DNA of 64,000 nt from a virus. Its lineage: Duplodnaviria; Caudoviricetes. The position numbers and the translations under genes are program-made. The stretch covers positions 14,683 through 78,682 of the IMG/VR virus record IMGVR_UViG_3300037722_000889. One strand, written 5' to 3'. Below the pieces are notes generated by a model. The model saw only the letters and a program-made list of their open reading frames with translations. It did not search any database and had not been told where the DNA came from. Positions 7,516 through 24,804 of this stretch are shown here, in pieces (the stretch's first letter is position 1; every line of letters starts with the position of its first letter).

Positions 7516-7532
7516 GGCAATGCCCTCATTGG

Positions 7533-8127: not shown

Positions 8128-8169
8128 TGGAACCTCCTCATTGAGGTGTGATCGGTCTAGAATCTAGAC

Positions 8170-8427
8170 CTACAGTTGATAGCGGTCGTAGTTGCGGATC
8201 GCGGTGCGCTCGACGTAGTTCTCGACGAGCTGGACTTCTTCCCCTGCCGCCTCCTTGGCCTGCCGGAAGAGGGATGCATCGCAATCCTCTTCAAGATACA
8301 CCGTTTCCCCTCGCTGGTACGAGTAGGACGAGACCTTGTCCAGCAGGTTGAGGCGGGCCAGCTCGCTGCGCTTCACGTGCAGCCAGCCGTGGCCGGGGTC
8401 GGATGTGAAATGGTACTTGGTTTTCAT
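8170..8427 (-). CDS. conserved small phage protein (DPGHGWL motif)
   Basis: MKTKYHFTSDPGHGWLHV...YLEEDCDASLF; stop codon abuts the family-X element. Confidence 0.75.
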   Translation of the reverse strand: MKTKYHFTSDPGHGWLHVKRSELARLNLLDKVSSYSYQRGETVYLEEDCDASLFRQAKEAAGEEVQLVENYVERTAIRNYDRYQL

Positions 8428-8843: not shown

Positions 8844-8854
8844 GGTGGTTCTCC

Positions 8855-9295
8855 TCAGTTAGTTTGAAACTCTGACATGCCAGACGGCTCGTGGTGTCCT
8901 TCCAATACCAGCAGACAATAGTAATTGTCTGGGTCGCCTTCATAGTGGTGCAGCTTCGCGGCCGTGCGCTGAGCCAGCTCGACCACGGTGGCAAGGTCAA
9001 CAGTGATCACCTGGACGTAGTACGTATCCTGCCCATAGTTGTCCGCCAAGTCATCCGGCAGCAGCAGCAGGACCGAGTACTTGCCTGCTTCGCTTTCCTG
9101 CTCTACCGGGGTTACGACGTATTGCGTCGGCGCCGGCAGTTCCTCCTCTTCCTTGGGCTCGGCAGCCAGCCGGAACTGCAGTTCCAGCCCGGCATGCCGG
9201 GCCAAAACGGCCAGCTCACGTACCGTAGTGTCTTCGTCCTGCAGCGCCTCGCCCAGTGCTGCCAGTTTCATGCCGTGGTCTTGAATGCTCGTCAT
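8855..9295 (-). CDS. hypothetical protein (146 aa)
   Basis: AGGAG SD before ATG 9295; 3' end runs through the degenerate palindrome at 8872. Confidence 0.6.
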   Translation of the reverse strand: MTSIQDHGMKLAALGEALQDEDTTVRELAVLARHAGLELQFRLAAEPKEEEELPAPTQYVVTPVEQESEAGKYSVLLLLPDDLADNYGQDTYYVQVITVDLATVVELAQRTAAKLHHYEGDPDNYYCLLVLEGHHEPSGMSEFQTN

Positions 9296-9510
9296 GCTGC
9301 TTCTCCTTTTGGGAATCGAAATTTGGTCAGCCACGCTGGGCCTTTGGTGTTCCTGATCTGCTGCAGGGTGGCAGCATCCGCCGCCGATACGTGCCAGCGG
9401 TAGTGGCCGGTGTTCCAGCTTTCACGCAAGCCAGCCTTCCATTGCCGACCGTATGCTTCGGCGAACCGCTGCAGGACGGCGAGTTCTTCGGTGCTGAGAT
9501 CTTCGTTCAT
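9292..9510 (-). CDS. hypothetical protein (72 aa)
   Basis: Coupled ORF containing YGRQWK...LQQIRNTKGPAWL. Confidence 0.6.
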   Translation of the reverse strand: MNEDLSTEELAVLQRFAEAYGRQWKAGLRESWNTGHYRWHVSAADAATLQQIRNTKGPAWLTKFRFPKGEAA

Positions 9511-9983
9511 GTTTTCTCTCCCACGTCAAACCCCTGTTCTTCCAGCAGTGCCCGCACCGTGGTCAAGTACCATTCACGAGTCTCTGCCTTGGACACGACG
9601 GTGACAGGCCGCTGCCCGATACTCAGGGAATCGCGAACCCAGACCACCTGGTACTCCTCACTGTCGTGCTGGTCAGTGGTTACAAGACTGCCGATCGTGC
9701 CATTGACCAGAGACCAACTGACCTGGTCAGCCGTTTCCTGCAGTAGATGAACGTAGGCGGCTACCCAGCGATTCTTGCCGTTCAGCGTCCAATGCCCGTG
9801 TACCCCCTCTACTTTAAGGTACACGCCTTCAGGGCGGCGGCGTGGAGCGCCGGGAATGTCCACGTAGACATGGATGGACTTGAACAGGTAAGAGACCTTC
9901 TCTACTGCCGGCATGAATAACTGAGTATGCCGGATGTCTTGCCGGTAGCGGTTGTACTTGTCGACATACGCTTCACGGTTCAT
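9507..9983 (-). CDS. hypothetical protein (158 aa)
   Basis: ATGA-coupled ORF. Confidence 0.6.
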   Translation of the reverse strand: MNREAYVDKYNRYRQDIRHTQLFMPAVEKVSYLFKSIHVYVDIPGAPRRRPEGVYLKVEGVHGHWTLNGKNRWVAAYVHLLQETADQVSWSLVNGTIGSLVTTDQHDSEEYQVVWVRDSLSIGQRPVTVVSKAETREWYLTTVRALLEEQGFDVGEKT

Positions 9984-10186
9984 CGGCTCACCTCCTCGCT
10001 CAGGTATCGCAAACAGGTTTTGGCCAGGTCGAGCGCGACAGCAGGCCTGCCCAGCGCATTGGTGATGTAATCTATTACGTAGGGGATCTCGTAGACTCCC
10101 AGCTCACGCGCCTGCTGGTAGGCCTGCTTACGCTGGCCGTTGACCATGCTGGCGTAGATCTCGTCCATATCTGCACGTGTTGTCAT
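9980..10186 (-). CDS. hypothetical protein (68 aa)
   Basis: GAGGAG SD upstream. Confidence 0.6.
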   Translation of the reverse strand: MTTRADMDEIYASMVNGQRKQAYQQARELGVYEIPYVIDYITNALGRPAVALDLAKTCLRYLSEEVSR

Positions 10187-10197
10187 GCCCGTTCTCC

Positions 10198-10443
10198 TCA
10201 GTAGTTGACTCGCTTCAGGAACTCCTGGACTTCATCGGAGTCCAGCCAGTCCAGCTGTGCCTGGGTCAGGGCGGGCTCGTAGTTGTCTTCGTAGCTCGCC
10301 AATACCCCGCAATCGGTAGCCACGGCGTAACTCGCGAAGTACTTGCCGTCTCGCTCCACCCAGACCTGGTTGCCGGGCCGGTCGTCATTGGGCGCGGTAG
10401 TGAGGGTGAGGCCGTGCCTTTCCAGGCAATTCTCTTGATCCAT
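10198..10443 (-). CDS. hypothetical acidic protein (81 aa)
   Basis: GAGGAG SD before ATG 10443 (MDQENC). Confidence 0.55.
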   Translation of the reverse strand: MDQENCLERHGLTLTTAPNDDRPGNQVWVERDGKYFASYAVATDCGVLASYEDNYEPALTQAQLDWLDSDEVQEFLKRVNY

Positions 10444-10444
10444 G

Positions 10445-10858
10445 TCAGTTCTCCTCGGCCAGCACGAGTTCGTCGGGCACTTCGACCTCATCGCCGAGTT
10501 CGCTGGCGGCGTGGCAGCGCATGGCGGCTTCGAGGAGTGTTTTGCCATATTCAAATGCTCGCCATGCTATTGGGTGGCGCCCGTCCAGAATGGGCTCGTG
10601 CAGCGGATCAATGTATTTGTGGCCCCCGAGCCAGGCATAGAACAATCCGTTATGTTGATTCCAGCGCACACCTTCTCGCTCGATGATCGGGCCGCCAAAC
10701 GACCAGTTGGACGAGTATTCCGCCACTTGGTCCGGACCTATCTTGGTGATAAGCTCCCCTGCCAGAATTGTCCTACCTTCCGTCAAGCGAATGACTGCGC
10801 ATTTCGCCACCGCCCAATCAAGTGCGCGCCCTTTGAGTTCAGCGGTTTTGATTTTCAT
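10445..10858 (-). CDS. DUF2591/NinX-like phage protein
   Basis: MKIKTAELKGRALDWAVAK...YSSNWSFGGPIIERE...LEAAMRCHAASELGDEVEVPDEL. Confidence 0.8.
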   Translation of the reverse strand: MKIKTAELKGRALDWAVAKCAVIRLTEGRTILAGELITKIGPDQVAEYSSNWSFGGPIIEREGVRWNQHNGLFYAWLGGHKYIDPLHEPILDGRHPIAWRAFEYGKTLLEAAMRCHAASELGDEVEVPDELVLAEEN

Positions 10859-11066
10859 ACCAGTTCTCCTCGCCGACCAGTACGGTCGGCATCCTGCTGT
10901 TGACGAACGGGCGGGCCTCGATGTCATCAGCACACTGCAGTAGGGCGATGGCGATCTGACGCGCCTCCTGCGGGGTGAAGTAGCCCTGGTCCACGTTGGG
11001 GCTGGCCAGGATGGTCAGGGCCGCCGTGCCGCGGAACCGGTAGATCTGTGCTCGACAGTGCAGCAT
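10839..11066 (-). CDS. hypothetical protein (75 aa)
   Basis: GGAGG SD upstream. Confidence 0.5.
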   Translation of the reverse strand: MLHCRAQIYRFRGTAALTILASPNVDQGYFTPQEARQIAIALLQCADDIEARPFVNSRMPTVLVGEENWYENQNR

Positions 11067-11078
11067 GGTTTCTGCCTC

Positions 11079-11327
11079 CTATGAGTGGTACGAGAAGAGG
11101 CGAGACTCTTCCCGGTAAACGGCGCCGATGACGTACTCCCGGTCGCCCTCGGTCTGCGAGTAGTACGCGGTCAGGTCGCCGTCTCGATCTGTGATGATCT
11201 CGACGTGGCCGAACCCCTCGACACTCCAGGCTGACAGGTAGCCTACAGCCTCGAACACTGCCGACATCGGAATCTCGTGTTTCAGGCAGTGCTGGGCATA
11301 ATCAACGCGGTGGATTACGGTTCTCAT
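11079..11327 (-). CDS. hypothetical protein (82 aa)
   Basis: Coupled ORF with GGAG SD. Confidence 0.55.
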   Translation of the reverse strand: MRTVIHRVDYAQHCLKHEIPMSAVFEAVGYLSAWSVEGFGHVEIITDRDGDLTAYYSQTEGDREYVIGAVYREESRLFSYHS

Positions 11328-11506
11328 GGCTTCTCCCTCCAGGCGTAGACCTGGGGTCGGTCGTACCGTTGCTCGTGCTCGTTCACCACTTCCACGGCAT
11401 GTTTGGCGGATGCCAGGGTGAAGTGAGTTTCCAGCACGATGTCGGTTGCGGTGTTGTAGACCTCGTAATGGTCATGAGGGCTGATGGCGGGCGGGTTAGG
11501 TCTCAT
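11324..11506 (-). CDS. hypothetical protein (60 aa)
   Basis: ATGA-coupled to the RadC-like gene. Confidence 0.5.
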   Translation of the reverse strand: MRPNPPAISPHDHYEVYNTATDIVLETHFTLASAKHAVEVVNEHEQRYDRPQVYAWREKP

Positions 11507-12009
11507 ATCAGACCCCTTTCCGCGAAGCTCACGGTCTCGGTGCCGCCCACGACGATGTGATCCAGGACCCGCACGTCGATCAGGCGAGACGTATCCTGCA
11601 GCCGGCGGGTGAGGGTCTGGTCGGCCTGGCTGGGCTCCGGCACGCCAGACGGATGGTTGTGGTAGAGGATCACCGCGGCGCTGTTGTGCGCCAGCATGGA
11701 CTTGGCCACCTCACGGGGGTACCCGCTGGCCCCGTCCAAGGTGCCGCGGAACAGCTGCTCGTCCTCGATCAGCCGGTGACGGTTGTCGAGATGGAGCATG
11801 CCGAACACTTCGTGCTCCAGCAGGGCGATGTGCATGATGAGGTGGTCCTTGACCATCTGCGGCGAGGACAACGGGTCGGTGGCGCGGGCCATGCGGTTCT
11901 GCAGGATGATCTTGGCCTGCTCGATGATGAGGTTGTCCGCCACGGCAGCCGGGGCCTGTGCCGGGAACAGCTGGTACGTGGGGGATGTTTCTGACTTGAC
12001 TTTGTTCAT
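11503..12009 (-). CDS. radC: RadC-like JAB-domain protein (UPF0758)
   Basis: EHEVFGMLHLDNRHRLI...YPREVAK...AAVILYHNHPSGVPEPSQADQTLTRRL...VRVLDHIVVG, including the JAMM HxH-x10-D motif. Confidence 0.92.
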   Translation of the reverse strand: MNKVKSETSPTYQLFPAQAPAAVADNLIIEQAKIILQNRMARATDPLSSPQMVKDHLIMHIALLEHEVFGMLHLDNRHRLIEDEQLFRGTLDGASGYPREVAKSMLAHNSAAVILYHNHPSGVPEPSQADQTLTRRLQDTSRLIDVRVLDHIVVGGTETVSFAERGLI

Positions 12010-12063
12010 GGTGCTTCTCCTCAGTGAGAAGCGATCCTGACATGTCAGGATCGCGGTGGTTGG

Positions 12064-12384
12064 TTATCGGAACTGCATGCCGTCCAGGGTGTACACCCGC
12101 ATGATCGGGCCGCGGGGACTGTCCCAAAACACGGTGATCTTGTCGCCCTTCAGGTCCCAACAGCCGATGGTCACGTTATCGATGCCCTGGATGTGGGCGT
12201 ATGCCAACAGCCGGTAGGGGCTGGAATCGAAGGGGCATTTGTCTTGGGTCATGACGATGTCCCCGCCGGCCTCGCTCTTGAAGTACGCCTCGTTGAAGTC
12301 CGCGGCATACGCCTTGGGCAGGAACACGAGAGCGAGTAGGGCGAACAGCAGGGCGGCGATGGTTACGGTAAGAATGGGCTTCAT
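12064..12384 (-). CDS. exported hypothetical protein with signal peptide (106 aa)
   Basis: MKPILTVTIAALLFALLALVFLPKAYA-AD signal peptide; bounded by a P element (12031) and an X element (12410). Confidence 0.7.
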   Translation of the reverse strand: MKPILTVTIAALLFALLALVFLPKAYAADFNEAYFKSEAGGDIVMTQDKCPFDSSPYRLLAYAHIQGIDNVTIGCWDLKGDKITVFWDSPRGPIMRVYTLDGMQFR

Positions 12385-12419
12385 TGCGGATCTCCTCAGT
12401 GAGATGGTTGGTCTAGAAT

Positions 12420-12668
12420 CTATACTGCGGTTTTGAACTCGACTTCCTGTTCCAGGCGGTTGATATTGACCGTGGTGATCAGTTTCGCGCCCGGAACTCT
12501 GGGTTGGAACCCGATGATCTCGTACACCGATTTCTCGGGCAGCGGGATCTCGTACACGTACATGGTAGCGATCTCGCCCGTGTCCTTGGCGCGTTTCATC
12601 ATGGCCTTGTCACGGTCTTCGTCCGTGGCCCAGCCGCAGAAGTCGATTGCGAGGTAGTGCTTTTTCAT
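12420..12668 (-). CDS. hypothetical protein (82 aa)
   Basis: AGGAG SD before ATG 12668; stop lies inside the X element. Confidence 0.6.
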   Translation of the reverse strand: MKKHYLAIDFCGWATDEDRDKAMMKRAKDTGEIATMYVYEIPLPEKSVYEIIGFQPRVPGAKLITTVNINRLEQEVEFKTAV

Positions 12669-12687
12669 GGTGGTTCTCCTTGGTTGG

Positions 12688-13149
12688 TTAAAACTGTACG
12701 CGAGAGGATGTGGTTGCCTTCGGGCACAGGGCGGAATGACGAGGCCGGGGTGCCAGCTCCCGGATCTCGCCACTCAGCAGCCCCTCCAGGATTTCCTGAA
12801 ACTCCTGCTCCGTTACCTGCTTCCGCTTTTCCCCGCGCAGACACATCACGTCGTCATGGAACAGCTGCAGCGCGCCGAGCTGTTCAACGGTCAGGCCTGT
12901 CTCTTGCTCGATGTCCTGTGGCCCGCCCGGTAAAGACCGGGCCAGCATGACGACTGAGGCGCCCTTTATCAGGTCGTCGCGGTGCATGAGATCCAGGGTA
13001 GGCCTGGACAGCATCGCCCCGACTACGCAGCAGCGCCCTTGTTCGTCCTCGTACACGCACTCTTCAAGGCGTTCAGACCAGGCCCATAGCCTGCCCTCCT
13101 TCAGCAGGTCGAGGGCCTTCTGAATGGACTGCCTTGCTTTATCGTTCAT
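12688..13149 (-). CDS. hypothetical protein (153 aa)
   Basis: AGGAG SD before ATG 13149. Confidence 0.55.
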   Translation of the reverse strand: MNDKARQSIQKALDLLKEGRLWAWSERLEECVYEDEQGRCCVVGAMLSRPTLDLMHRDDLIKGASVVMLARSLPGGPQDIEQETGLTVEQLGALQLFHDDVMCLRGEKRKQVTEQEFQEILEGLLSGEIRELAPRPRHSALCPKATTSSRVQF

Positions 13150-13525
13150 GGCGGTTCTCCTGTTCGAACCGGTCGAAGACCGGGATGGGGGATTCATAGG
13201 GGAAGCGGCTGTCGCAGGACTCGATGTAGTGCCCGCCAAACGAGCCGCCCAGTACCGGGTTTCCGGCTTCGGTCAACGGTACGGCGCGTACCCGGCGGAT
13301 AATCGCGTCCTCCGGCCTGATCGTCGGGCGCAGTCCATGGGCTATGTTGAGGTAGCCTGGGTATTCCCGCAGGTTGTCACTTTCGATCAGGGTCAGGCCT
13401 GGGCAGCCTTCCTGGGACGTGAACACGTTGCAGTCCTTCACACGCAGCACTGCGTGTTTGCAGCCTGACGTCACGCCGCCGTTCGTACAGTCATCGCCGA
13501 TGATAAAGACGAGTAAACCTTTCAT
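13139..13525 (-). CDS. hypothetical protein (128 aa)
   Basis: Extended SD upstream; contains DCTNGGVTS and FGGHYIESCDSRF. Confidence 0.65.
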   Translation of the reverse strand: MKGLLVFIIGDDCTNGGVTSGCKHAVLRVKDCNVFTSQEGCPGLTLIESDNLREYPGYLNIAHGLRPTIRPEDAIIRRVRAVPLTEAGNPVLGGSFGGHYIESCDSRFPYESPIPVFDRFEQENRHER

Positions 13526-13579
13526 CGCATTTCTCCTCGTTGAGAGTGGCGGTCTAGAATCTAGACCGCCGTAGGTTGG

Positions 13580-14830
13580 TTACAGTGGCAGGTACCACAG
13601 GATGTCGTCGTAGTTGTCGATGTGCTTCCACCGTAAGCCCGAAGCACTGCGGACCATGGTCTTGCCGTCGCGCATCCTGTACAGCACATCCCCTGTGAGG
13701 CCGTGCGGGCAATCGCCGCCCTTCCACGGGGTCATCTGCAGCAGGCCGGGGTGGTCCAGTTCCTTGAAGCTCATGCGCCAGGTAACCTGTCCTTTGGAGT
13801 GGGCTACCTTGTACGGGTACTCTCGTGACGGGTCGTGCTCAATCAGTTCGCCTACGGCGGCCAAATCCTCGTCACTGTTCCAGAACCGGTACAGCTTGCC
13901 GATGACCGGCGCCGCCTGTTTCTTGGCCTCCGCCTCTTCCTCCTGCTTCCGGTCGTACCACTGGATCGTCTGCTCCAGCAGCTTGATCATGGGCTCGGGA
14001 TTACCATCCTTGGCGAACACCCGGAACTCAGATCCGCACGAGCGGCCTCTGGACAGCTTGATCTCGCACTCGTCGCAGTTCGAGTTGTGCACCTGACACA
14101 GGGCGCAGCTGGTTTCCCGGAACGAGAGCACGGTCTCGCCGGTCGTGATCAGGAAGCCGTCCCGTGACAGCCCGTACTCCTTCAGCACTTCTTTCCTGGC
14201 GCCCTTCCACTTGCGCAGGGAATGTTCCATGGCGGCGCGGGTGGTAATTGTCGGCGGGAACCCGGCCTTGGCTCCTGGCGAGAATGTGCTGGCCGGGACC
14301 GGGTAGAACTCCTGCAGCCAGGTATCCGGGCAAGCCTTCGGTACTTTCGGCTTGAATACGCGCCGCCAACCATAGCCTTCGTTGAAGACTTCAGGCTCGC
14401 GCTCGACCACGAGGGCGAACGCCTCGCGCTTATTGTTTTCGTCGCTGAAGAACGGGCACCATGAGCCGTCATCCGTCTTCAGCGTGATGACGGTGCCCGG
14501 CTTGAATGCGAAGTGGTTGCTTCTCAGTACCTCGATCTGGTCCCCGACTTTCAAGCCCAGCTTTTCGCGCGTAGTTTTCTCCACTGGTTTCGTATCCACG
14601 CGTTCCCAGCCATAGCCTTCGTCGTAGACTTCTTCGGTTTCTTCGGTGGAGCCTTCGACGGTGAAGTAGGTTGTTTCTCCTGATCGCTCGTTGTAGAAGC
14701 GAGGGGCGATAGACCTGTCGTCCCGGGCTAAGCGAAGGATGTCGCCGGGCTGGCAGACCTCATGGCCTTTGCGTAGAACTTTGATCTTGTCTCCGACCTT
14801 CAGGCCGAGTCTTTCACATGGCGTGGCCAT
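13580..14830 (-). CDS. modular protein: two tandem SH3/KOW-like repeats, a Cys-rich module and a C-terminal WxGGxCP phage module
   Basis: Repeats LGLKVGD(K/Q)I.VLR...DD....P.F...EV(Y/F).EGYGW.RV twice; HSLRKW...CALC...CDEC...CG; PWKGGDCP...LRWKHIDNYDDILWY. Confidence 0.7.
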   Translation of the reverse strand: MATPCERLGLKVGDKIKVLRKGHEVCQPGDILRLARDDRSIAPRFYNERSGETTYFTVEGSTEETEEVYDEGYGWERVDTKPVEKTTREKLGLKVGDQIEVLRSNHFAFKPGTVITLKTDDGSWCPFFSDENNKREAFALVVEREPEVFNEGYGWRRVFKPKVPKACPDTWLQEFYPVPASTFSPGAKAGFPPTITTRAAMEHSLRKWKGARKEVLKEYGLSRDGFLITTGETVLSFRETSCALCQVHNSNCDECEIKLSRGRSCGSEFRVFAKDGNPEPMIKLLEQTIQWYDRKQEEEAEAKKQAAPVIGKLYRFWNSDEDLAAVGELIEHDPSREYPYKVAHSKGQVTWRMSFKELDHPGLLQMTPWKGGDCPHGLTGDVLYRMRDGKTMVRSASGLRWKHIDNYDDILWYLPL

Positions 14831-15086
14831 ATTCTTTCTCCTCATTGAGTGGTTGGGTAATGATTTCTTTATTCTGCAGGACATCCTGCACGAAGTCCGC
14901 CGCAAACTGCTGACAGCAGCCCAGCATCTCCTGCACGAACTTGACCGTAGACTCCGGGCCGTTCACCTGGACGGACAGCCGGCAATAGGCTGCCAGAGAC
15001 AAGACGGCCCGGTAGGGCAGGGTGGAGTGATGCGTATGATTTCCGGTGTTGATACGGACACCGGTACCGTGGTGCAGCAGCTCCAT
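14814..15086 (-). CDS. hypothetical protein (90 aa)
   Basis: ATG immediately after the stop of the upstream basic ORF; no clear SD. Confidence 0.4.
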   Translation of the reverse strand: MELLHHGTGVRINTGNHTHHSTLPYRAVLSLAAYCRLSVQVNGPESTVKFVQEMLGCCQQFAADFVQDVLQNKEIITQPLNEEKEYGHAM

Positions 15087-15087
15087 G

Positions 15088-15252
15088 TCAGCGAACCACC
15101 AGACCGAGGGTCTTCTTGGCGATCTTCTTACGCAGCTTGTCACCGGAGCGGGTGAGGTTGTCCGGGTTATGTGCCCACGTGGTGCGCTTCATGTTGGCGG
15201 TGCCGCTGAAATGCTTGCGGGCGGAGGGCTTACGGGCTTTGCTTGCTTTCAT
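15088..15252 (-). CDS. small Lys/Arg-rich protein (54 aa)
   Basis: Own translation MKASKARKPSARKHFSGTANMKRTTWAHNPDNLTRSGDKLRKKIAKKTLGLVVR after the extended SD. Confidence 0.6.
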   Translation of the reverse strand: MKASKARKPSARKHFSGTANMKRTTWAHNPDNLTRSGDKLRKKIAKKTLGLVVR

Positions 15253-15319
15253 CTTCAGTTCTCCTCATTGAGAAAGTTGGTCTAGAATCTAGACCGGGTT
15301 GGATCCTGACATGTCAGGA

Positions 15320-15931
15320 TCAGTACGGTGCTACTATTTCACATTGCGCCAGCGGCACGGGCAGGTGTTCCGCCATGCCGTTGGTTTCCGGATCGGACCC
15401 GTAAAAGCCACAGCAGCTGTCGGTCTCCTCCTCATCCTGCTCCAGGACGAAACCGTACACGTCGCCCTGGATGAACTGGTCGTATACCTTGACCTCGCTC
15501 TTCAGGCGCTGGCTGACCTTGTCCCACAGGCTGGCGCTGATCCGCTTCTTGCCGAACTCGGCGCGCACCTTCTCCGGGGTCACGAAGATCACACCGACCT
15601 GGCCAGAGTCCCAGGGGCAGGAGAATCTCTCCGTGCTCATGGTAATACCGGAATGGTCATACAGGTACAGTGGCAGCAGGTAGATGCCACACTCTTCGGC
15701 CGTGTCGGCCAGGGTTGCGGGCCGGTCGAAGTCCCGGTAGTCGTCGCTGCGGTAATCCTCCCAGGACTCGCGGTACTTCTTGCTGCTGCGTACCGCTTCC
15801 TTCAGCTTGTCCACGCCATCCTTGTCACCGAGGTTGTAGCGGCTGTGCCAACAGGCCATGGTACCGAGGTTGTCCCAGTCACGCGGGCTCTCCGCGTCCT
15901 GGTCGGGGATGATCTTGAGTACGTTCTTCAT
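15320..15931 (-). CDS. conserved hypothetical protein of mobile elements (203 aa)
   Basis: ESPRDWDNLGTM...LYLYDHSGITMS...CPWDSGQVG...VYDQFIQGDVYG...DSCCGFYG. Confidence 0.75.
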   Translation of the reverse strand: MKNVLKIIPDQDAESPRDWDNLGTMACWHSRYNLGDKDGVDKLKEAVRSSKKYRESWEDYRSDDYRDFDRPATLADTAEECGIYLLPLYLYDHSGITMSTERFSCPWDSGQVGVIFVTPEKVRAEFGKKRISASLWDKVSQRLKSEVKVYDQFIQGDVYGFVLEQDEEETDSCCGFYGSDPETNGMAEHLPVPLAQCEIVAPY

Positions 15932-15966
15932 TCGCGTTCTCCTCATTGAGAAAGTTGGCCTAGGTT

Positions 15967-16248
15967 CTAGACCGCGGCGTAGCGGGGTACGAAGAAATTC
16001 TCCAGCTTGCCGGTCTCCCGGTTCAGGTGACGGGCGATGCCGTTGACGTCGTGCATCAGGTCGTGGTCTTCTGCGTTTGCCAGCCCGCTCAGACGCAGTG
16101 GCGTGTGCAGGTGAACGGCCGCCAGGTCCATCTGCACGCCGAGCCGGTCGACACTGTACCCGTAGTGATCAGCCGCGATCTTGCGCACTCGCGCAGTGAT
16201 GACATCTACGTGTATCCGTTCTTCTTTGGTGAATGTTGCAAATTTCAT
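15967..16248 (-). CDS. DUF6874-like phage protein
   Basis: MDLAAVH...LRLSGL...DLMHDVNGIARHLNRETGKLENFFVPRY. Confidence 0.75.
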   Translation of the reverse strand: MKFATFTKEERIHVDVITARVRKIAADHYGYSVDRLGVQMDLAAVHLHTPLRLSGLANAEDHDLMHDVNGIARHLNRETGKLENFFVPRYAAV

Positions 16249-16285
16249 GATGTTCTCCTTGGGTTGAAATCCTGACATGTCAGAG

Positions 16286-16930
16286 TTACCAGTAATCCCG
16301 TTCCACTTCCTCGCAGGTGGCATACCCGCCACCGTACCTCAGCCTGAACTCCTGGCCTACGTGCTCCGCGTGCTTGGCACGCGGGTCCACCGCTTTTGCA
16401 ATGGCCCAGAACTGCTGGTTGGCCTTGCCGATGTCTCCGAACCGGCGCTTGGCCAGGTTGTAACCGTGGCGCAGGAAGTGCAGGGAGTCCGTCCAGAACT
16501 GCGGGTCCACCTCGATGTCAGGGTCCATCCCTCTCATGCCTACGTCGATGATCGTATGGAATGCATCATCACAGTCGTGCCGGCGGGTACGCGGCACCGG
16601 CATCCGGTACGAACACCCGTTCGCGTAATACCCCGCCAAGCTGGCCGCATCCCTTGCGAGGTTCTCTTCCGCCGAGTACATGTTGCCCTGGCCATCCCGG
16701 CTCAAGTCGCTCCACTCGCCGCGCACGAACCACACGCCTCCCAGCGCCACCAGCTCGTCACCGACCGAGCCAATCGCCTTCAACCCATACTGGTGCTCCA
16801 GCAGGTCATGGGCGATCAGCAGGCCTTCCCTGGCGACCATCGGGGTTTCAATCATGCGCACGTCCTTGCACATCAGTCCCAGCTCTCCGAGACATATGTC
16901 CTCCCGCACTACCAAACTCACGCTTCTCAT
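16286..16930 (-). CDS. hypothetical protein (214 aa) between two chimeric palindromes
   Basis: Extended SD before ATG 16930; stop abuts the element at 16272; contains IAHDLLEH. Confidence 0.7.
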   Translation of the reverse strand: MRSVSLVVREDICLGELGLMCKDVRMIETPMVAREGLLIAHDLLEHQYGLKAIGSVGDELVALGGVWFVRGEWSDLSRDGQGNMYSAEENLARDAASLAGYYANGCSYRMPVPRTRRHDCDDAFHTIIDVGMRGMDPDIEVDPQFWTDSLHFLRHGYNLAKRRFGDIGKANQQFWAIAKAVDPRAKHAEHVGQEFRLRYGGGYATCEEVERDYW

Positions 16931-16977
16931 GGTTACCCTCCTCATTGAGGTATTGAAACTCTGACATGTCAGGACCG

Positions 16978-17322
16978 TTACACTTCCTGCTCCACCCACA
17001 CGTACAGGATGGACCCTACGGGCGGGCTGCCGAACAAGGCTGCCGTCTCGCTGATGATGTAGTGCCTGACGTTATACTCGGGCAAATTCACTTCCAGCGA
17101 ACCTAGCTTGTACTTAACGGTTACCTCGACCTCGATGTACTCGTCATCATCCTTCGGACGGCGACTGGATACGGTTAACCACATTGGCTTACTGCGGCGC
17201 AGGCCCGGGAACACCTCATTCAGCTGCCTTGCGCACAGCAGCCCGTCCGTGGTGAACGGGCCGCTCCGCCACCAATCAAAGAGCAGGCCTGGGATGTACT
17301 GGAGCTTCACTGTCTTTTTCAT
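16978..17322 (-). CDS. hypothetical protein, paralog of 17319-17666
   Basis: Shares LC..LN..FP.L, VSSR(R/K)P and (I/V)LYVWVEQE with its neighbour. Confidence 0.7.
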   Translation of the reverse strand: MKKTVKLQYIPGLLFDWWRSGPFTTDGLLCARQLNEVFPGLRRSKPMWLTVSSRRPKDDDEYIEVEVTVKYKLGSLEVNLPEYNVRHYIISETAALFGSPPVGSILYVWVEQEV

Positions 17323-17666
17323 GCTGATTCCTCCTGTTCAACCCACACATACAGGACGGTACCGGGCGACGGATTGTCGAATGCGTCGCGCACATCCTCC
17401 ATAATGTACGTGCCGCCGCGAAGGCCCCTTCCCTCTACATACTCTCCATAGAAGTCCATCTTCACAGTGACGTGCTTCCGGCCGTCGGCAGGTTTGCGGC
17501 TGGACACTGTGACCAGTAGTGTCTTATCCGTATCCAAGTCCGGAAACAGGCTGTTCATAATGCCTCCGCACAAGTACCCGCCATGGCCTGGTAGATTCCA
17601 CCGAGGCCCGTTAAACCCTCCCTCTCGGTACACAAATTCCACTGTCTTTTCCACTATCTCTTTCAT
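17319..17666 (-). CDS. hypothetical protein, paralog of 16978-17322
   Basis: Shared motifs with its neighbour; ATGA coupling. Confidence 0.7.
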   Translation of the reverse strand: MKEIVEKTVEFVYREGGFNGPRWNLPGHGGYLCGGIMNSLFPDLDTDKTLLVTVSSRKPADGRKHVTVKMDFYGEYVEGRGLRGGTYIMEDVRDAFDNPSPGTVLYVWVEQEESA

Positions 17667-18250
17667 GCCGATTCCCTCATCTGCCAAAGTTGGTCGTCTC
17701 CAACGGCATTCTTACCCTCCAGGGTAATCGCGCCGGCCTTGTTCAGCAGGCCCTTCTGGATCAGGGCCGCCTTCACCGCTTCCCACCGTTCCGACGTGAT
17801 GCCGGTGTACCGGTGCGCCTCCCGATAGCGGATGTTCTTCTCGCCGCCATAGGAATTCTTGTGACTGCGGGTCGCGATCAGGACAATGCGCTCGTCCCGG
17901 GTCAGCTCCACCGGCGCAGGCAGGGCGGCTGCCAGGTCTCCGGGCAGGGCATGGGCCTTCAGGTATTGCCGATCGGACACCTGCTGCATCTCGACGATGA
18001 CCACGCCAGGACGCAACGGCACATCCACGTGCTCTTCCGGCTTGAACGGATTGGCCGTGTCAGGGTGAGCCTCGGTGACCTTGCCAGTGGCAAGCTCGAC
18101 GGCCTTGTACCAGGACCGGGAACCGCCGGACCAGAAGTTGTTGAGATGAACAGAGCTGGCGGTAATGAGCTGCACCTGCTTGCCCGAGTAGGCAAAGCAG
18201 CGATGGATGCACTCCGGCAGGTCTTGCGGCTTGATGTAGGTGGTTTGCAT
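17663..18250 (-). CDS. hypothetical protein (195 aa)
   Basis: Extended SD before ATG 18250; contains FWSGGSRSWY. Confidence 0.7.
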   Translation of the reverse strand: MQTTYIKPQDLPECIHRCFAYSGKQVQLITASSVHLNNFWSGGSRSWYKAVELATGKVTEAHPDTANPFKPEEHVDVPLRPGVVIVEMQQVSDRQYLKAHALPGDLAAALPAPVELTRDERIVLIATRSHKNSYGGEKNIRYREAHRYTGITSERWEAVKAALIQKGLLNKAGAITLEGKNAVGDDQLWQMRESA

Positions 18251-18296
18251 TGTCTTCTCCTCATTGAGAAAGGTTGGGAATCCTGACATGTCAGGA

Positions 18297-18791
18297 TCAG
18301 GCAGGGGTGGCTTCCTTCAGCACCTTCTCGATGTGGCTCCAGATAGGATGCCGGCAGATGAACTTCCATTGCCCGCTTTCCAGCAGGTGAAGACTGAAAT
18401 AGGACTGGCCTGCTGTCATCTCGATCTTCCACAAGTTGCTGCTGCCTTCTACGGTAGCGATCCAAGCCAGGTTGTTGCCGACCGTAGGGATAGTCTGCGT
18501 GGTGATCTTGCGAGGTGGCGCTGTCGGCGGCCCGTCAATGTACTCAAGAGTGGTGCGGATACTTACGGCGAGCGAAGACTCGTCCTGCCCGTTCTCCTCC
18601 AGCTCGTCCAGCAGCCGCTGCGCCAATGCGTACAGCTCCGGTGCCATGCGCATCAGCCTTCCATTCGCCTCGGCTTCCTGCAGGCCGATGGATCGGCTAC
18701 ATTCGCGACCGGCGCTGTAGTACAGGTAATCCTCGTCGTCATCTTGGACCGGCCCGAAATCGGCCCAAGGGCCTTGGGTAAATTTTGCCAT
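18297..18791 (-). CDS. phage protein with 'TxGPW...ANARLI.AAPEL'-type motif
   Basis: MAKFTQGPW...EAEANGRLMRMAPELY; bounded by P elements at 18283 and 18815. Confidence 0.7.
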   Translation of the reverse strand: MAKFTQGPWADFGPVQDDDEDYLYYSAGRECSRSIGLQEAEANGRLMRMAPELYALAQRLLDELEENGQDESSLAVSIRTTLEYIDGPPTAPPRKITTQTIPTVGNNLAWIATVEGSSNLWKIEMTAGQSYFSLHLLESGQWKFICRHPIWSHIEKVLKEATPA

Positions 18792-18846
18792 GCTCTTCTC
18801 CTCAGTGAGAAACTCTGACATGTCAGAGTTTGTGATGGTCTAGGTT

Positions 18847-19032
18847 CTAGACCTCGACGTTGCGCCGCCGGATACGGTCAAGCAACTGGGCGCAGGTAAG
18901 GTCGTTCTCTTCTATCTCGTCCACCAGCTCTGGGCAGTCGAACATGGCGTCATACGCTTCCTCCGTCTTCCCGTGCCGGTGCAGGTTGAGGATCATCCGC
19001 TCAACCACGGGCTGTGGATACCTCTCGCTCAT
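18847..19032 (-). CDS. hypothetical protein (61 aa)
   Basis: Stop lies inside the X element at 18839. Confidence 0.55.
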   Translation of the reverse strand: MSERYPQPVVERMILNLHRHGKTEEAYDAMFDCPELVDEIEENDLTCAQLLDRIRRRNVEV

Positions 19033-19412
19033 GTTGGTTTCCTCGCTTCAAAATGCACACAGCCATACTCCGCCCCGAAATAGACCGCGCCATCGTGCCC
19101 GCACTCAATCCCACACTCGTCAGGCTTCATGCCGCGGGCATCAAACGGCGCCTTGTGGCAGGGATAGGCAAGGTGGACTGCGTGGTACGGCAGACCTGGC
19201 ACTTCGTTGGAGTAGGCCTTCCCCTCCCTTTCCCAGTGCTGGCAATCCTTGCAGGTGCCGATGAGGGTGGTGACTCGGCCTTGCAGGAAGCCACGGAACA
19301 GTCGCAGCTCGCGGGCCGCGCTGGCCGCATTAGTGCTGTAGTCCTCCACCTTCTGCTCGTTATCACACGTCCCCAGGTACTCCCGCATTGCCTGTTCCAG
19401 GTTCATGGCCAC
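19029..19412 (-). CDS. hypothetical Cys-containing protein (127 aa)
   Basis: CKDCQHW...FGAEYGCVHF. Confidence 0.6.
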   Translation of the reverse strand: MAMNLEQAMREYLGTCDNEQKVEDYSTNAASAARELRLFRGFLQGRVTTLIGTCKDCQHWEREGKAYSNEVPGLPYHAVHLAYPCHKAPFDARGMKPDECGIECGHDGAVYFGAEYGCVHFEARKPT

Positions 19413-19642
19413 GCCTCCTCCACGACCATCTGCACCCTGTCGGGCGGGTCAGGCAGTAATATCTGCAACTCGGTACCACAGCCCCCGCACTCTGCCCCCT
19501 TTCCGTCCAGGTGGCTCGCCAGTTCAGGCGGCACACTCGCGGCCAGGTAGCTATTCCACTGACCGTCGCGCTCAATCGACTGAAACACTACATCTCTACC
19601 GCACTTCGGGCAGGGCGCTATTACTTTATCGTGTATGCTCAT
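19403..19642 (-). CDS. zinc-ribbon protein (79 aa)
   Basis: CPKC...CGGC pair. Confidence 0.6.
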   Translation of the reverse strand: MSIHDKVIAPCPKCGRDVVFQSIERDGQWNSYLAASVPPELASHLDGKGAECGGCGTELQILLPDPPDRVQMVVEEAWP

Positions 19643-19644
19643 GG

Positions 19645-19851
19645 CTATGTCTCCTGCACGTCGTCAACACTCCACTGACCATCACGCACGGAGTAGCCAA
19701 ACTCCTCACACGCATCCTCCGAAGCCTCCACCTTTCGCTGGGCTTCTTCCGCACTCTCCGCCTCCACCAGATGCATCAGGGTGCGGTTGTCGGTAACGTA
19801 CACTCGAAAGGTTTTCAGTCTGAGTTCTTTATTCACGGTGCTTCTCCTCAC
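19645..19851 (-). CDS. hypothetical protein (likely GTG start at 19836)
   Basis: GAGGAG SD at 19844-19849 just downstream of the X+P composite. Confidence 0.55.
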   Translation of the reverse strand: MRRSTVNKELRLKTFRVYVTDNRTLMHLVEAESAEEAQRKVEASEDACEEFGYSVRDGQWSVDDVQET

Positions 19852-19881
19852 TCTAGATTCTAGAATCCTGACATGTCAGGA

Positions 19882-20322
19882 TTACCAATCAAATATCGGG
19901 AACAGGTTCTTGTACAGCTCTGCGTCCCGGTCGAACATGACGTAGCGGTGGCCCTTCTTACGCGCCCAGGCCAGGATGTCGTCCAGGTACGGGCAGCCCA
20001 TGCTCTCTCCCCTGCGCATGGCGTTGGGGTCGGTGTAGGTCAGCCAACCATATTCACCCAGACTATAACTGATGCAATTATCCAGGCTGCCTTCATCCAA
20101 CTTCTCCGCCGTTTCCTTCGGCACGTGGCCGGTAGACAGGATCGGGCAGGTGAAGGTCTCGACTTGGGTCTCTGCACGTGCCAGTTGCATTCGCAATGCT
20201 TCACACTCTTCGCGCAGAGTGAGGAAGGTCTTGACTCCGGCTTCCTGTTTCAGCTGTGCCATCTCTTCCCGCAAGGCTTCACACTCCTCGCGCCAGGCGC
20301 GGTTCGACTTGACTTCTGCCAT
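19882..20322 (-). CDS. hypothetical protein (146 aa; N-terminal coiled coil)
   Basis: Bounded on both sides by X+P composites; C-terminal YVMFDRDA motif. Confidence 0.7.
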   Translation of the reverse strand: MAEVKSNRAWREECEALREEMAQLKQEAGVKTFLTLREECEALRMQLARAETQVETFTCPILSTGHVPKETAEKLDEGSLDNCISYSLGEYGWLTYTDPNAMRRGESMGCPYLDDILAWARKKGHRYVMFDRDAELYKNLFPIFDW

Positions 20323-20361
20323 GATTTTTCTCCTTACTCTAGGTTTTAGAATCCTGACATG

Positions 20362-20763
20362 TCAGGATTGCTCGCTCTCCGCCACTGCTCGGCGCATGAT
20401 CCAGTGTGCCTGATCCAACAGGGCCAGGGCTTGCGTGGTCAGCGCGCATGGTATGGGCGGCAGGTCTGGCCTGGCTTCATCCGTCTCCAGTTGGTAATGC
20501 AGCTTTTCAATTTGCTGCGCCTCTTCCAACAGCCACAGGTTGGCAGGTGGTCGATCCCGCTCGTACTCCTTGCGTGCATCTTCCAGCCACTGCACCGCTT
20601 CAAGCAGGGAGGAGCGCGTGGCAAAGCCTTCTTCCCTGCCGTCCTCGTGCTTCAGCATGATCTCGAATGCATTCCAGGTGAGTCGCTCGATGACCCACAC
20701 CTGTGGACCGATTAGATACTGCCAACAGTGAGGGCCAACTATGGTAAGAGTGTTGGCGCGCAT
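20362..20763 (-). CDS. hypothetical protein (133 aa)
   Basis: Uses the TGA inside the P palindrome (20362-20364) as its stop. Confidence 0.6.
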   Translation of the reverse strand: MRANTLTIVGPHCWQYLIGPQVWVIERLTWNAFEIMLKHEDGREEGFATRSSLLEAVQWLEDARKEYERDRPPANLWLLEEAQQIEKLHYQLETDEARPDLPPIPCALTTQALALLDQAHWIMRRAVAESEQS

Positions 20764-21089
20764 GGTGCTTCTCCTTCCGGCAGGAGTGACTCCAGGAACT
20801 CACGCTCCTGACGGGCGAGGTCGGCGAGTTCATCGGTCCAGGCGATGTGCAGCCACACGTCGTGCGCTTCCATGTACTTCCCTATCTCCCCATCAAACAG
20901 ATCGTACGGAGTGCTGCCGCACCCTCGCACGCCGGTGGCCTCCCGCACAGGGCAGCCGCTACAGTCTTTAACGAAGAACAACTTGCACAGTGGACAGTTT
21001 GCCGTGCCCAGGTCCCGCCCGTCATGACACTCAATTTCCTTCCACTTCTCGATACTGCCGCGCAGGGCGGCCAGAGTTTGTTCATCCAT
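20739..21089 (-). CDS. Cys-rich putative zinc-binding protein (116 aa)
   Basis: GSIEKW...CPLC...CSGCPV...GCG; extended SD upstream. Confidence 0.7.
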   Translation of the reverse strand: MDEQTLAALRGSIEKWKEIECHDGRDLGTANCPLCKLFFVKDCSGCPVREATGVRGCGSTPYDLFDGEIGKYMEAHDVWLHIAWTDELADLARQEREFLESLLPEGEAPCAPTLLP

Positions 21090-21250
21090 ATCGTTTCTCC
21101 TCATTGAGAAACTCTGACATGTCAGAGTTTCAGGCGTTGATCCAGTGCCGTTGGAAGCGGCGGATATACCGCTTCTGCTGCGGCCAGGGGACCGGCAGGA
21201 GGGTGCAGAGGGCGCACTGGTTCCTGCCGGTGGTAATGAACCGCAGCGGG

Positions 21251-21448
21251 TTACAGGGCATACCGGGTAGCCTGGACATGAATGTGGCGCTTGGGCAGGC
21301 GGTGGCGTGCATCAGCCACAGCTTCCAGAAGCTCCGCACGGGCCTCCTGAGCGGCGATCAGGTTCTCGCGGGTGGCGCAGTCACGCAGGCGCTTGCAGGC
21401 CTGGCGGTAGGCGAGGCGCAGGCAGGTGAGGGTGTAGAGGTTCTTCAT
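21251..21448 (-). CDS. hypothetical protein (65 aa)
   Basis: AGGAG SD before ATG 21448. Confidence 0.5.
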   Translation of the reverse strand: MKNLYTLTCLRLAYRQACKRLRDCATRENLIAAQEARAELLEAVADARHRLPKRHIHVQATRYAL

Positions 21449-21552
21449 GGCTTTCTCCTTCATTGGAAATGCACCACTGGGATTCCCCTGGCCTCAATGC
21501 AAGGGGGAGTGGTGCTGGTTTGGGTGTAACGTATATCAGTTCGAGGGTATAT

Positions 21553-21798
21553 TCAAGCGGCCTCGGCCTGGGCGTTCGTCCGGGCCAGCTCCCGGCGCAG
21601 GTAGGCCTGGGTGACCGCGGAGTCGCTCAGGTCCGTCGCTTCCTGGCAGGCATAGCCGGCCAGGTAGATGTTGATGCCCCTTACCTTCTGGGCAGTCTCA
21701 TTCCACGCCTCTGGCGTGTCGCAGCCTTCGTTGCAGTCCCACAGGAAGATGAGGGTCTGCTCCAGGTTGTCGAGTTCGGCTTTATCTTCAGGGGTCAT
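21553..21798 (-). CDS. hypothetical protein (81 aa)
   Basis: AGGAG SD upstream. Confidence 0.6.
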   Translation of the reverse strand: MTPEDKAELDNLEQTLIFLWDCNEGCDTPEAWNETAQKVRGINIYLAGYACQEATDLSDSAVTQAYLRRELARTNAQAEAA

Positions 21799-21882
21799 GA
21801 TGGTCTCCTTCATTGGAAAGGTCGGATCGTCCGACAGGTTGATCCCGATATGTCGGAAGGGTGGATCCTGACATGTCAGGAT

Positions 21883-22188
21883 CTAGGTTCTAGACTCGCT
21901 GGCCTCCTTTACTGCGCCTACGAAGGCGGCAACATGCTGGGGCAGGTCCACCGGCTTTCCGGACAGTGCGGCTTCTTCGAATCCGCCGGCAACCTCCAAG
22001 GCGTCCAGTATCCCCATGGGCTCCCCGGTCACCTGGTAGTACAGCGCGCTCAGGGCCATGCCGGCGCATTCCAAGGCCCCTTGCGCGTACAGGTTCTGGC
22101 CGTCGTCCTCCCCCTCGATTCGGTCCATCGCGGCGCCGAGGATGATTCCAGTTACGAATGCAAGCTGCTCGTGGCTCATTGGGTGCAT
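21883..22188 (-). CDS. hypothetical protein (101 aa)
   Basis: Bounded on both sides by P+X composites. Confidence 0.65.
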   Translation of the reverse strand: MHPMSHEQLAFVTGIILGAAMDRIEGEDDGQNLYAQGALECAGMALSALYYQVTGEPMGILDALEVAGGFEEAALSGKPVDLPQHVAAFVGAVKEASESRT

Positions 22189-22288
22189 AGTGCTCTCCTT
22201 GGTTGGGATCCTGACATGTCAGGATCTAGGTTCTAGGGCTGCCGGCCTTCATAGGGGAGGGCGGCGGGGCCGGCTTGCCGCGTGGCCG

Positions 22289-22489: not shown

Positions 22490-23043
22490 ATATTATTAGG
22501 AGCTTCTAATAATTTTCGGAAAAAACGTGTGTAATGCCTTATTTTAAGGGGTGAGAGGCACGTGGATTCCGTCCGTGGAGCGGCGTGTAATCGTGTAATG
22601 AAGGGAGGGTGGCGGTGGTGGAACCCAAGCAGGGCCTGGCTTTACACCGATTACACGAGTTACACAGTGAAAGTGAACAAAAAGTTTCTCTGCCTCACCC
22701 AGTTTAGGCCCCACCCCAGTTTCAGGAAGAAAATTTCCCGAAATCGTGAATTTTTGGGGTTCACCATAAAATTTTAGTGGACTGCACTTTGCAAAGTTGT
22801 GAAGCGTTTTCAATCTTGCTTGGGTATAAAACGGGTAGGGGGTCAAAACTTTTTATTCACTTTCACTGTGTAACTCGTGTAACTGGTGTAAAGCTTTACC
22901 CTGCCTGGGTTTCACCACCGCCATCCTGCCTTCATTACACCATTACACCCTCATTTCCCAACCAAATCCACCTGCATCTCGCCCCTTAAAATAAGCTATT
23001 ACACACGTTTTTTCCGAAAATTATTAGAATCTCCTAATAATAT
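22490..23043. repeat. long imperfect inverted repeat, ~198-bp arms (22490-22687 / 22846-23043) with a ~158-bp spacer
   Basis: For example TTATTAGGAGCTTCTAATAATTTTCGGAAAAAACGTGTGTAAT pairs with ATTACACACGTTTTTTCCGAAAATTATTAGAATCTCCTAATAA, and TTACACGAGTTACACAGTGAAAGTGAA pairs with TTCACTTTCACTGTGTAACTCGTGTAA. Confidence 0.93.
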
Positions 23044-23130
23044 ACGTACGCGTATATATTAGCCCTTCATCATATTCGACCGTCAAAACGGCCTGGACCT
23101 CCCGATCGGCGCCTGCCCTTCAAAAATCGC

Positions 23131-23630: not shown

Positions 23631-24804
23631 TTCTGCCAGCCTTCCGTTCGTTTTTGCCAGCCTTCCGTTCGTTTCGGCGGCCAGCGCCTGTGACTCCCAG
23701 ATGCCGCCTCACCACCGATGCCCACAGCGCCCCTGGCCGGCGGTGCCGGCTTTTCAAGGGGAGTGGGTAGGGCAGTGGTGAAGCGACATGAGGCAGTGCC
23801 CAGGGCTTGGGTCTGCGTGAATGCGTCGAACCTGCAACTCACCACCGATCCTGACATGTCAGGATCGACCAGGTGCCGCGGATGGCACGCGCCGGGGTCG
23901 AAGTCCGGCTCCGCCCGTACGTCGGTGAGAGGTACGGTGGTGAGGTCCCTGCAGGGGACAATATGATTGGTCTCCCGGTATATTGTTGACCGGGTACCAC
24001 GCGGTTATCCAAGCGCATGGGCTCGCCATGCTAGTAGGCATTTTCGGTGGACCGCTCCACCGTCAGGGCATCCTAGTGTCTCGCACGCCGTGGTCACCAC
24101 GTGAAGGGAAAAATTCAGTGGCGACGGTAGGCGATTCAGATGCGTAGCATGCAGGAGGACGCACCGCCCCTTTCGAGGGGTGTGGCCTATGTGAGTATAA
24201 GCTGGCATGGGGTGCCCAGCGACGGTGGCCCGATTCTGTGCTCGCCGTTCGACGAGTCTCGGTTTCGGATCGCTACTCTCCTGCTATTACCTGACCACCG
24301 GTTTTATTGGTACCAGGAAACCGGCAAAGGAACTGGAGTCTTGACGGCGCTCCACTCTGGTCAAGTGGTCCCGGGGTATCATTCCGGCCACTTTTCCGCA
24401 TTACCTCCCGTCGATATGGGACGGGTACCGGCTACCGCGTGCCACGGTGCCCGAAGGGCCACAACCCTTCGCTTCCTTGACTTCCCTTTGTAGTCCGCAC
24501 CAGATGGACGGCTCCTGCCTGCACGCCCCCACGTCGATGCTACCGTGACCACGTGTCCATCTGAAAACCTGTATGCCAGCGCCCAGCGCCAGGCCCGGGC
24601 CAGTGGCCGATCCTGACATGTCAGGATCACCGCTGGCCGAGAAATTGTGCCCGCGCACCAGGCAAAACCCTGGCGCCGGGGAAAACGCCCACGCGCCCGG
24701 GAAAAGCCCGGCGCGCGGGAAATCACCACCGGCCAGCCGGCGGGAGACTGAATCCTGACATGTCAGGATCGCCCTTTTGTGTGCGCACGCACGCACGCGC
24801 ACAC

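Follow-up and report, generated by a model that had tools for sequence, protein, structure and literature searches.

The early-gene array and its junction palindrome

The DNA analysed here, henceforth referred to as the window, is a stretch of 64,000 nucleotides that corresponds to bases 14683-78682 of a 78,682-bp IMG/VR record, rated 94% complete, of an uncultured sediment phage of ~79 kb. The phage is a lytic-type siphophage of a roughly 79-kb lineage and carries a virulent-type early operon. Positions 1-26000 of the window contain a dense minus-strand array of ~55 small early genes, and the structural genes follow on the plus strand. The replication genes, located partly outside the window, include PolA with a 5'-3' exonuclease, an SNF2 helicase, thymidylate synthase and an ATP-dependent ligase. 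An SbcC-like ATPase and an SbcD-like phosphoesterase are encoded at 59279-61444 and 62694-63749, respectively. The first gene of the early array (24877-25605) lies downstream of two sigma-54-type promoter matches, which are tandem exact matches to the consensus TGGCACG-N4-YTGCW on the minus strand (25764-25779 and 25821-25836, 57 bp apart). No sigma-54 activator domain was found to be encoded by the phage in a profile search of the genome for which control genomes gave matches.

Protein families recognised in the early array are a C5 cytosine methylase (4879-5796), an ArdA antirestriction protein (7093-7515), a RadC-like JAB protein (11503-12009), DUF5983 (19882-20322), NinX, DUF6874 and a CsrA-domain protein; the remaining genes have no family. 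The methylase, ArdA, RadC-like JAB and DUF5983 are the same set that is typically carried by the leading regions of conjugative plasmids, and their presence suggests an anti-defence role for the array.

A palindromic core, CTGACATGTCAG, henceforth referred to as P, recurs between the early genes in 17 exact copies, all of them between 4028 and 25646 and within the minus-strand array. Allowing up to two mismatches gave 19 matches against 2.8 expected, and no copy was present in the other 14.7 kb of the genome. A literature search for the core sequence returned nothing relevant. The usual order of elements at a junction, in the direction of transcription, is a stop codon, the palindrome, sometimes a second element TCTAG-N3-CTAGA, a leader with a ribosome-binding site (RBS), and ATG. 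The leader after the palindrome is 10-30 nt long with the extended Shine-Dalgarno sequence TCAATGAGGAG, and at seven sites a T[GA]A stop codon lies 2 nt before the core. The 5' leader of the first early gene also contains a copy of P, which follows the two sigma-54-type matches, and some copies bracket non-coding stretches.

The arms that extend the core fall into the two types described in the initial annotation, and its counts and coordinates were reproduced exactly. Type A (ATC/GAT) is found at 13 sites. Type B (AAACT/AGTTT) is found at two, namely 18810-18831, where the arm on the side of the downstream gene runs into a TTTCTCACTGAGGAG leader, and 21109-21130, which abuts a TTTCTCAATGAGGAG leader. 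Because AATC/GATT variants of type A exist, the contrast between the types reduces essentially to the dinucleotide that touches the core, TC/GA at the 13 A sites and CT/AG at the two B sites. Fifteen of the 17 sites are perfect palindromes of 18-24 bp with a 4-nt loop and no bulges. Four adjacent pairs of P each enclose a single gene. Identical runs of 31 and 23 nt flank other single-gene units of the array and make good substrates for recombination.

P probably forms a hairpin or serves as a symmetric site for protein binding. The 12 nucleotides that are invariant in 17 copies point to sequence-specific recognition. The arms covary, with a change from G-C to A-T in the fourth position at two sites, and at the two B sites, AG together with the first four bases of the otherwise constrained leader TTTCTCAATGAGGAG forms the complement of the upstream arm GAAACT; this covariation indicates that symmetry or pairing itself is maintained. 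If so, asymmetric copies are likely to be young. Among specific functions, an RNA hairpin acting in processing, stability or translation is a reasonable possibility at somewhat less than even odds, a symmetric DNA operator is a tentative one at about one in three, and some other role is unlikely. An intrinsic terminator was ruled out, as no U tract follows the palindrome. No Pfam helix-turn-helix domain scored above threshold among 34 proteins scanned (28 from the early array, about half of its small proteins), and a 416-aa protein gave a MazE/AbrB-like match that was sub-threshold only. Sigma-70-like matches numbered five against 5.6 in the shuffled expectation, and a weak CTGACA-N18-TAGAGT match occurs at two P sites only.

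Several further features of the array were recorded. The second palindrome family, TCTAG-N3-CTAGA, spans 8156-22237 at gene junctions and is often fused to a P site; the fused module at 21868 and 22211 forms a 31-nt identical direct repeat around one 101-aa gene. The leader motif TTTCTCAATGAGGAG gave 18 matches at up to three mismatches against 0.9 expected (4007-21111, plus 27003, 38582 and 63756) and stands before the start codons of early and late genes, comparable to the start-associated sequences of Cluster K mycobacteriophages. The CsrA-domain protein (865-1416, minus strand, 183 aa) matches Pfam CsrA over residues 1-51 (E 6e-9, above the cut-off), and its remaining ~130 aa have no Pfam match. 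A-type P sites carry a GGA (in CAGGAT) 15-30 nt upstream of the Shine-Dalgarno GGA, a spacing similar to that of CsrA targets, but the first GGA would sit in a stem here.

Between two P palindromes on the minus strand, ~750 nt (23863-24612) contain many local stems and no credible ORF, and are a possible candidate for a large non-coding RNA. A 130-nt GC-rich stretch between the P sites at 24613 and 24755 is also rich in hairpins. A search of the window against Rfam gave no match. The only tRNA called by ARAGORN (21143-21239, plus strand, 97 nt) was rejected as false, since it lies inside a minus-strand gene. A large inverted repeat at 22490-23060, located in a 1.9-kb gene-poor gap and rich in GTGTAA/TTACAC boxes around an AT-rich centre, looks like iterons or a replication origin.

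Two asymmetric sites around a single gene

Only two of the exact copies of P are asymmetric, and they are neighbours. The first occupies 16267-16288 (core 16272-16283) and reads AAATC-core-AGTTA on the plus strand, which in transcript (minus) orientation is TAACT-core-GATTTC. The second occupies 16956-16977 (core 16961-16972) and reads AAACT-core-GACCG on the plus strand, or GGTC-core-AGTTTCAA in transcript orientation. The two sites, referred to below as 16272 and 16961, are reciprocal in the dinucleotides that touch the core, 16961 being TC/AG and 16272 CT/GA. The initial annotation had reported neighbouring reciprocal hybrids that enclose exactly one RBS and ORF, and this arrangement was confirmed in the sequence.

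The enclosed gene (16286-16930, minus strand, phrog_7111) encodes 214 aa and is the sole gene between the two cores. Its RBS is GAGGAGGG, within an extended Shine-Dalgarno leader at 16936-16949 (CTCAATGAGGAGGG on the minus strand) that is a copy of the genome-wide leader motif. Its TAA stop codon is part of the arm of site 16272, 2 nt from the core. Leader, RBS, ORF and stop are all present between the cores, which makes the unit complete. The downstream neighbour (15967-16248, minus strand) encodes a 93-aa DUF6874 protein, and its CAACCCAAGGAG leader resembles the leaders after A-type sites. The upstream neighbour (16978-17322, minus strand) is a 114-aa ORFan with its TAA stop 5 nt from the 16961 core; it has no homologue besides itself among 5.8 billion proteins.

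The 214-aa protein has no Pfam match. It has 14 homologues in public data, and the resulting 15-member family has an invariant AHD..EH motif (AHDLLEH here). The AlphaFold model is confident (pLDDT 93.5) and predicts a beta-hairpin and a helical bundle. Comparison of the model with the PDB gave no Foldseek match at E<=0.001, and the best VIA-align Z score was an unconvincing 4.6. Homologues with 38-50% identity occur in unrelated phage contexts, and the order of this gene, DUF6874 and a 203-aa gene was found in none of 83 other loci; the early genes therefore move individually over evolutionary time. GC content, GC3 and codon use of the 214-aa gene are typical of the array and give no sign of foreign composition.

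Both asymmetric sites are poor hairpins, with energies of -3.7 and -3.1 kcal/mol compared to -8 to -18.6 kcal/mol at the other 15. In a post hoc comparison, 6/8 inner arm positions at the two sites were non-complementary, against 3/60 at the other 15. The assignment of their arms to the A and B types was less clear than had been proposed. The reciprocal dinucleotides stand, and the 5' arm of 16272 ends in AACT like the B sites while its 3' arm GATT matches the A sites, but over eight positions each arm of 16272 is as close to its A-type as to its B-type neighbours (6/8 in either case). The arm of 16961 that was described as A-like is GGTC in transcript orientation and does not have the third-position A found in all 13 A sites (GATC/AATC). 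The B-side arm of 16961 is 6/8 identical to the two symmetric B sites.

The claim that only two copies are asymmetric was upheld for exact copies and has to be extended for a third site, which has one core mismatch (8872-8883, CTGACATGCCAG on the plus strand). Its arm on the side of the downstream gene is the 8-nt AGTTTCAA in transcript orientation, identical to that of 16961 (8/8). The upstream ORF continues across 8872, so that the second arm of this site is unrelated coding sequence; the core mismatch falls in the upstream half.

This third copy is relevant to one alternative origin of the pair. The upstream arm of 16961 would never have been palindromic and would have arrived with an ORFan block (the 114-aa gene and its followers) joined illegitimately at or near the core centre, with 16272 a separate and unrelated variant. 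The 8-nt arm that 16961 and 8872 have in common, the absence of a matching upstream arm at both, the read-through and the upstream position of the core mismatch at 8872, and the lack of homologues of the 114-aa neighbour are all as expected from such a half-site. The reciprocal type of the next site is left unexplained, however, and the bases of 16961 that adjoin the core are TC, as in A sites. This origin was considered improbable.

The positional significance of the pair is weak. The chance of adjacency is 0.12, falling to 0.06 with reciprocity and 0.03 with the exact polarity; when 8872 is counted, the probability that some pair among three asymmetric sites is adjacent rises to 0.31.

Origin of the asymmetric pair

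The reading that we prefer, with a probability of roughly 50%, is that the two sites are scars of crossover at the P core by ordinary recombination between repeats. P is a repeated gene-junction element of the early operon, and sequences of 12-31 nt that recur at many junctions would for that reason serve as short homologies for recombination during phage replication. Crossovers inside the 12-bp core would join a TC/GA half-site to a CT/AG half-site on either side of the 214-aa gene. This gene carries its own leader and stop and may have entered as a mini-circle or through double-crossover replacement, with a co-infecting relative or another junction as the source; alternatively, it may have been left standing once its neighbours were deleted. 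Circle insertion, double-crossover replacement and two flanking deletions leave one and the same footprint and so cannot be told apart.

Judged from the arms, a core crossover between TC/GA and CT/AG sites would be the most economical route to a reciprocal pair. With one exchange, no more than one or two further substitutions have to be assumed, compared with at least six under independent mutation, all confined to the arms and leaving both cores intact. We infer both the origin of 16272 and 16961 in recombination rather than mutation and the direction of the event. Among the points against the scar reading are type calls that depend on 2-4 nt per arm, a core that at 12 bp is very short for homologous recombination, the weak positional significance, the typical composition of the gene and the presence of the gene in all four metagenome runs described below. 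An inversion between the two cores was rejected, because the gene points the same way as its neighbours and an inversion would yield A/B plus A/B instead of the observed A/B plus B/A.

Local decay is the main competitor of recombination and was judged rather unlikely. Symmetric copies would have drifted by point mutation where arm pairing was dispensable, and adjacency and reciprocity would be coincidental. Types A and B are separated mainly by a single dinucleotide on each side, and two neighbouring substitutions would suffice to derive 16272 from an AATC/GATT site such as that at 19868, or from a B site. The third degenerate copy at 8872, the p of 0.12 for adjacency alone and the native composition of the gene also fit. 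Decay would nevertheless have to place at least six changes in the arms and none in 24 core positions, against the 3/60 non-complementary positions of the other 15 sites, and each changed dinucleotide is precisely the one found in the other subtype, the order being reciprocal.

The initial annotation had gone further and proposed that a circular cassette with a B site inserted into an A site, leaving attL/attR-like hybrids. The passage of a crossover through the core remains the most economical account and is consistent with gene gain and loss at palindromes in Vibrio relatives (see below), but the circular, att-type insertion was not supported. Searches for a dedicated enzyme were negative. 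Neither PF00589 (Phage_integrase; E<=0.1, whole 78.7-kb record) nor PF00239 (Resolvase) matched in the 94%-complete genome, and all control genomes matched. HNH, RecT, YqaJ and Y1_Tnp were likewise without a match in this genome, with controls matching in each search. No repressor or integrase is recognisable in the phage.

An integron-like system, in which a dedicated enzyme acts on folded or duplex palindromes and inserts a ~690-bp B/B circle into an A/A site, was thus given very little credence. The footprint is as expected from such an event, the unit is promoterless and complete, and the reconstituted circle site TAACT-core-AGTTTC would make a good palindrome. Set against this are the negative enzyme searches, perfect palindromes that do not have attC-like bulges, a reconstituted recipient (GGTC-core-GATT) that would be an atypical A site, and the position of two of three Vibrio junctions outside the palindrome, described below. 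The last of these, together with the failure to find a tyrosine or serine recombinase, also speaks against an attL/attR-type circle catalysed by an integrase or the SbcCD pair.

A recombinase-free variant was considered as well. The SbcC/SbcD-like nuclease (59279-61444 and 62694-63749) might cut the tips of extruded P hairpins or cruciforms, and core-centred rejoining would then amount to dedicated cassette shuffling with 16272/16961 and the 8872 half-site as its products. We regard this as a long shot.

Searches for close relatives of the phage returned little. Comparison of the region with 50,697 phage records by megablast and blastn gave nothing, and the A-site 18-mer had no match in IMG/VR and 12 single, unrelated matches in JGI metagenome contigs. 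A 14-mer scan gave, among the matches listed, single chance matches only. IMG/VR searches seeded with peptides of the target, both neighbours and PolA found no relative. Only one other contig carrying the 16286-16930 gene was found, and it is 100% identical. In assembled contigs of four sediment metagenome runs, the phage was present at 100% identity with the gene in place and both sites bridged. No deletion or circle joint (16283/16961) was seen in these runs, whose assembled contigs drop rare forms; a few joints with sides of 21-22 nt at repeated k-mers were taken as assembly artefacts. No RNA dataset carrying the phage was listed.

By PolA (35% identity, full length), the nearest phages in culture are siphophages of Vibrio crassostreae with genomes of 83-85 kb. 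Vibrio phages PS14A.1, K381, K450 and K437a and one IMG/VR record, G002, belong to the same broad lineage (PolA 35%, portal 43-44%, capsid 36%). PS14A.1 and K381 have 12 core proteins in common with the phage at 27-43% identity; those common to PS14A.1 include helicase, a primase-like protein, ligase, terminase, portal, protease, major capsid and the SbcCD pair.

These relatives contain an intergenic palindrome of their own, TTGGTCTnAGACCAA, between early genes (31 copies in PS14A.1, 29 in K381 and 12 in G002). The copies in PS14A.1 are almost all between early genes, each then followed by a conserved RBS leader. The sequence is unrelated to P, and it differs from P in its free central base, which varies even at orthologous sites, and in having no arm subtypes. 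For one form, GGTCTCAGACC, no paper was found in a phage context. No dispersed palindrome was seen in the lineage members G001, G003 and G004, whose repeats are tandem or terminal, and common ancestry of the palindrome trait is therefore not established. G001 and G003, which are related 82-87-kb phage records, carry tandem-repeat arrays at both termini, with 11-bp units in G001 (1-130 and 86824-86880) and 18-bp units in G003 (1-125 and 81751-81895).

PS14A.1 and K381 are ~94% identical over the early region, with nine indels or replacements between them in 48 kb. Three of the genes involved, p0016, p0022 and p0027, are single genes between two palindromes in PS14A.1 and correspond to one palindrome in K381. 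For p0022, the K381 site consists of the left flank of the left copy and the right flank of the right copy, joined across a shared 24-nt module. The initial annotation had suggested looking in relatives that lack the enclosed gene for a single intact site at the junction, and the K381 p0022 junction is exactly an empty site of this kind, in distant Vibrio relatives. For p0016 and p0027, the switch lies within the shared leader downstream of the palindrome, so that two of three junctions are outside the palindrome. Crossing in the RBS leader, at variable points of the shared module, indicates homologous recombination.

Boundaries between PS14A.1 and K381 fall within 65 nt of a palindrome in 8/18 cases (p 5e-5 versus random positions), whereas against the gene-junction expectation palindromes were not enriched (p 0.61). 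The Vibrio evidence is best read as an analogy, from a different palindrome in a distant relative.

Comparison with known systems and implications

The closest parallel is the promoter-early stem-loop (PeSL) of the T4-type phages RB49 and phi1. PeSLs are repeated intergenic modules on either side of individual small early ORFans (Arbiol et al. 2010, PMC2839356; Comeau et al. 2014, PMC4122927). Recombination between neighbouring PeSLs deletes the gene or excises it as a mini-circle with a chimeric PeSL, which has been suggested to re-insert; the mapped crossovers lie at various points between the -10 box, the Shine-Dalgarno sequence and ATG (PMC2839356). The arrangement here is similar, with 17 copies among ~55 small early genes, mostly with no known function or of anti-defence type. 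Gene differences exactly at the modules, another PeSL trait, were found between PS14A.1 and K381 at their own palindrome. PeSLs differ from P in combining an AT-rich sigma-70 early promoter with a stem-loop, whereas P is a GC-balanced, perfect palindrome of 12-22 bp at which no promoter was detected. The hosts of PeSLs are T4-type phages, while P occurs in a roughly 79-kb siphophage lineage, known here from sequence and with no circles or indels observed.

A second parallel is provided by Cluster O mycobacteriophages, in which 17-bp dyad repeats (34 in Corndog) are concentrated in the narrow gaps between genes of a single long operon, with a dimeric regulator as their presumed ligand (Cresawn et al. 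2015, PMC4351075). A deletion by recombination between two of these palindromic repeats has been documented, as has a gene flanked by a direct repeat (PMC4351075). Invariant palindromes in intergenic gaps are common to both systems. The Cluster O repeats are of other sequence, have 7-bp arms and a 3-bp spacer, lie inside genes in about a third of cases and have no tie to stop codons or the RBS.

The stoperators of Cluster A mycobacteriophages are also many copies of a short site in operon gaps and act on transcription via a bound protein. They have no symmetry, depend on orientation and serve as binding sites for the immunity repressor of temperate phages. Their distribution has been likened to that of the Cluster O repeats (PMC4351075). 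Stoperators and P are both many-copy and intergenic, but the phage described here has no recognisable repressor or integrase.

The likeness to integrons consists of promoterless single-gene units between palindromic sites and of hybrid boundaries that result from recombination within a site. Neither IntI nor another tyrosine recombinase was found in the 94%-complete genome that carries the P array. Integron attC sites are imperfect R''-L''...L'-R' repeats with extrahelical bases and a fixed crossover in the R box, whereas 15 of the 17 P sites are perfect palindromes, and no GTTRRRY-type box is present. On inspection of the array start, where the sigma-54-type matches lie at 25764-25836, no distinct primary site comparable to the attI/Pc platform was recognised. 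A new integron-like system is not supported, and the finding does not point to a new recombination enzyme.

The pair of asymmetric sites is most likely to reflect ordinary gene swapping at repeated junction sequences, as known from T4-type phages. If the scar reading is true, a single genome records a gene exchange that normally needs a pair of close relatives to be seen. The PeSL idea, that regulatory repeats act as seams for accessory genes, would then reach ~80-kb siphophages, including cultured Vibrio phages. As the array holds anti-defence genes (ArdA, RadC-like, methylase), such seams would help explain the turnover of counter-defence functions, and the cultured Vibrio relatives make the mechanism testable at the bench.
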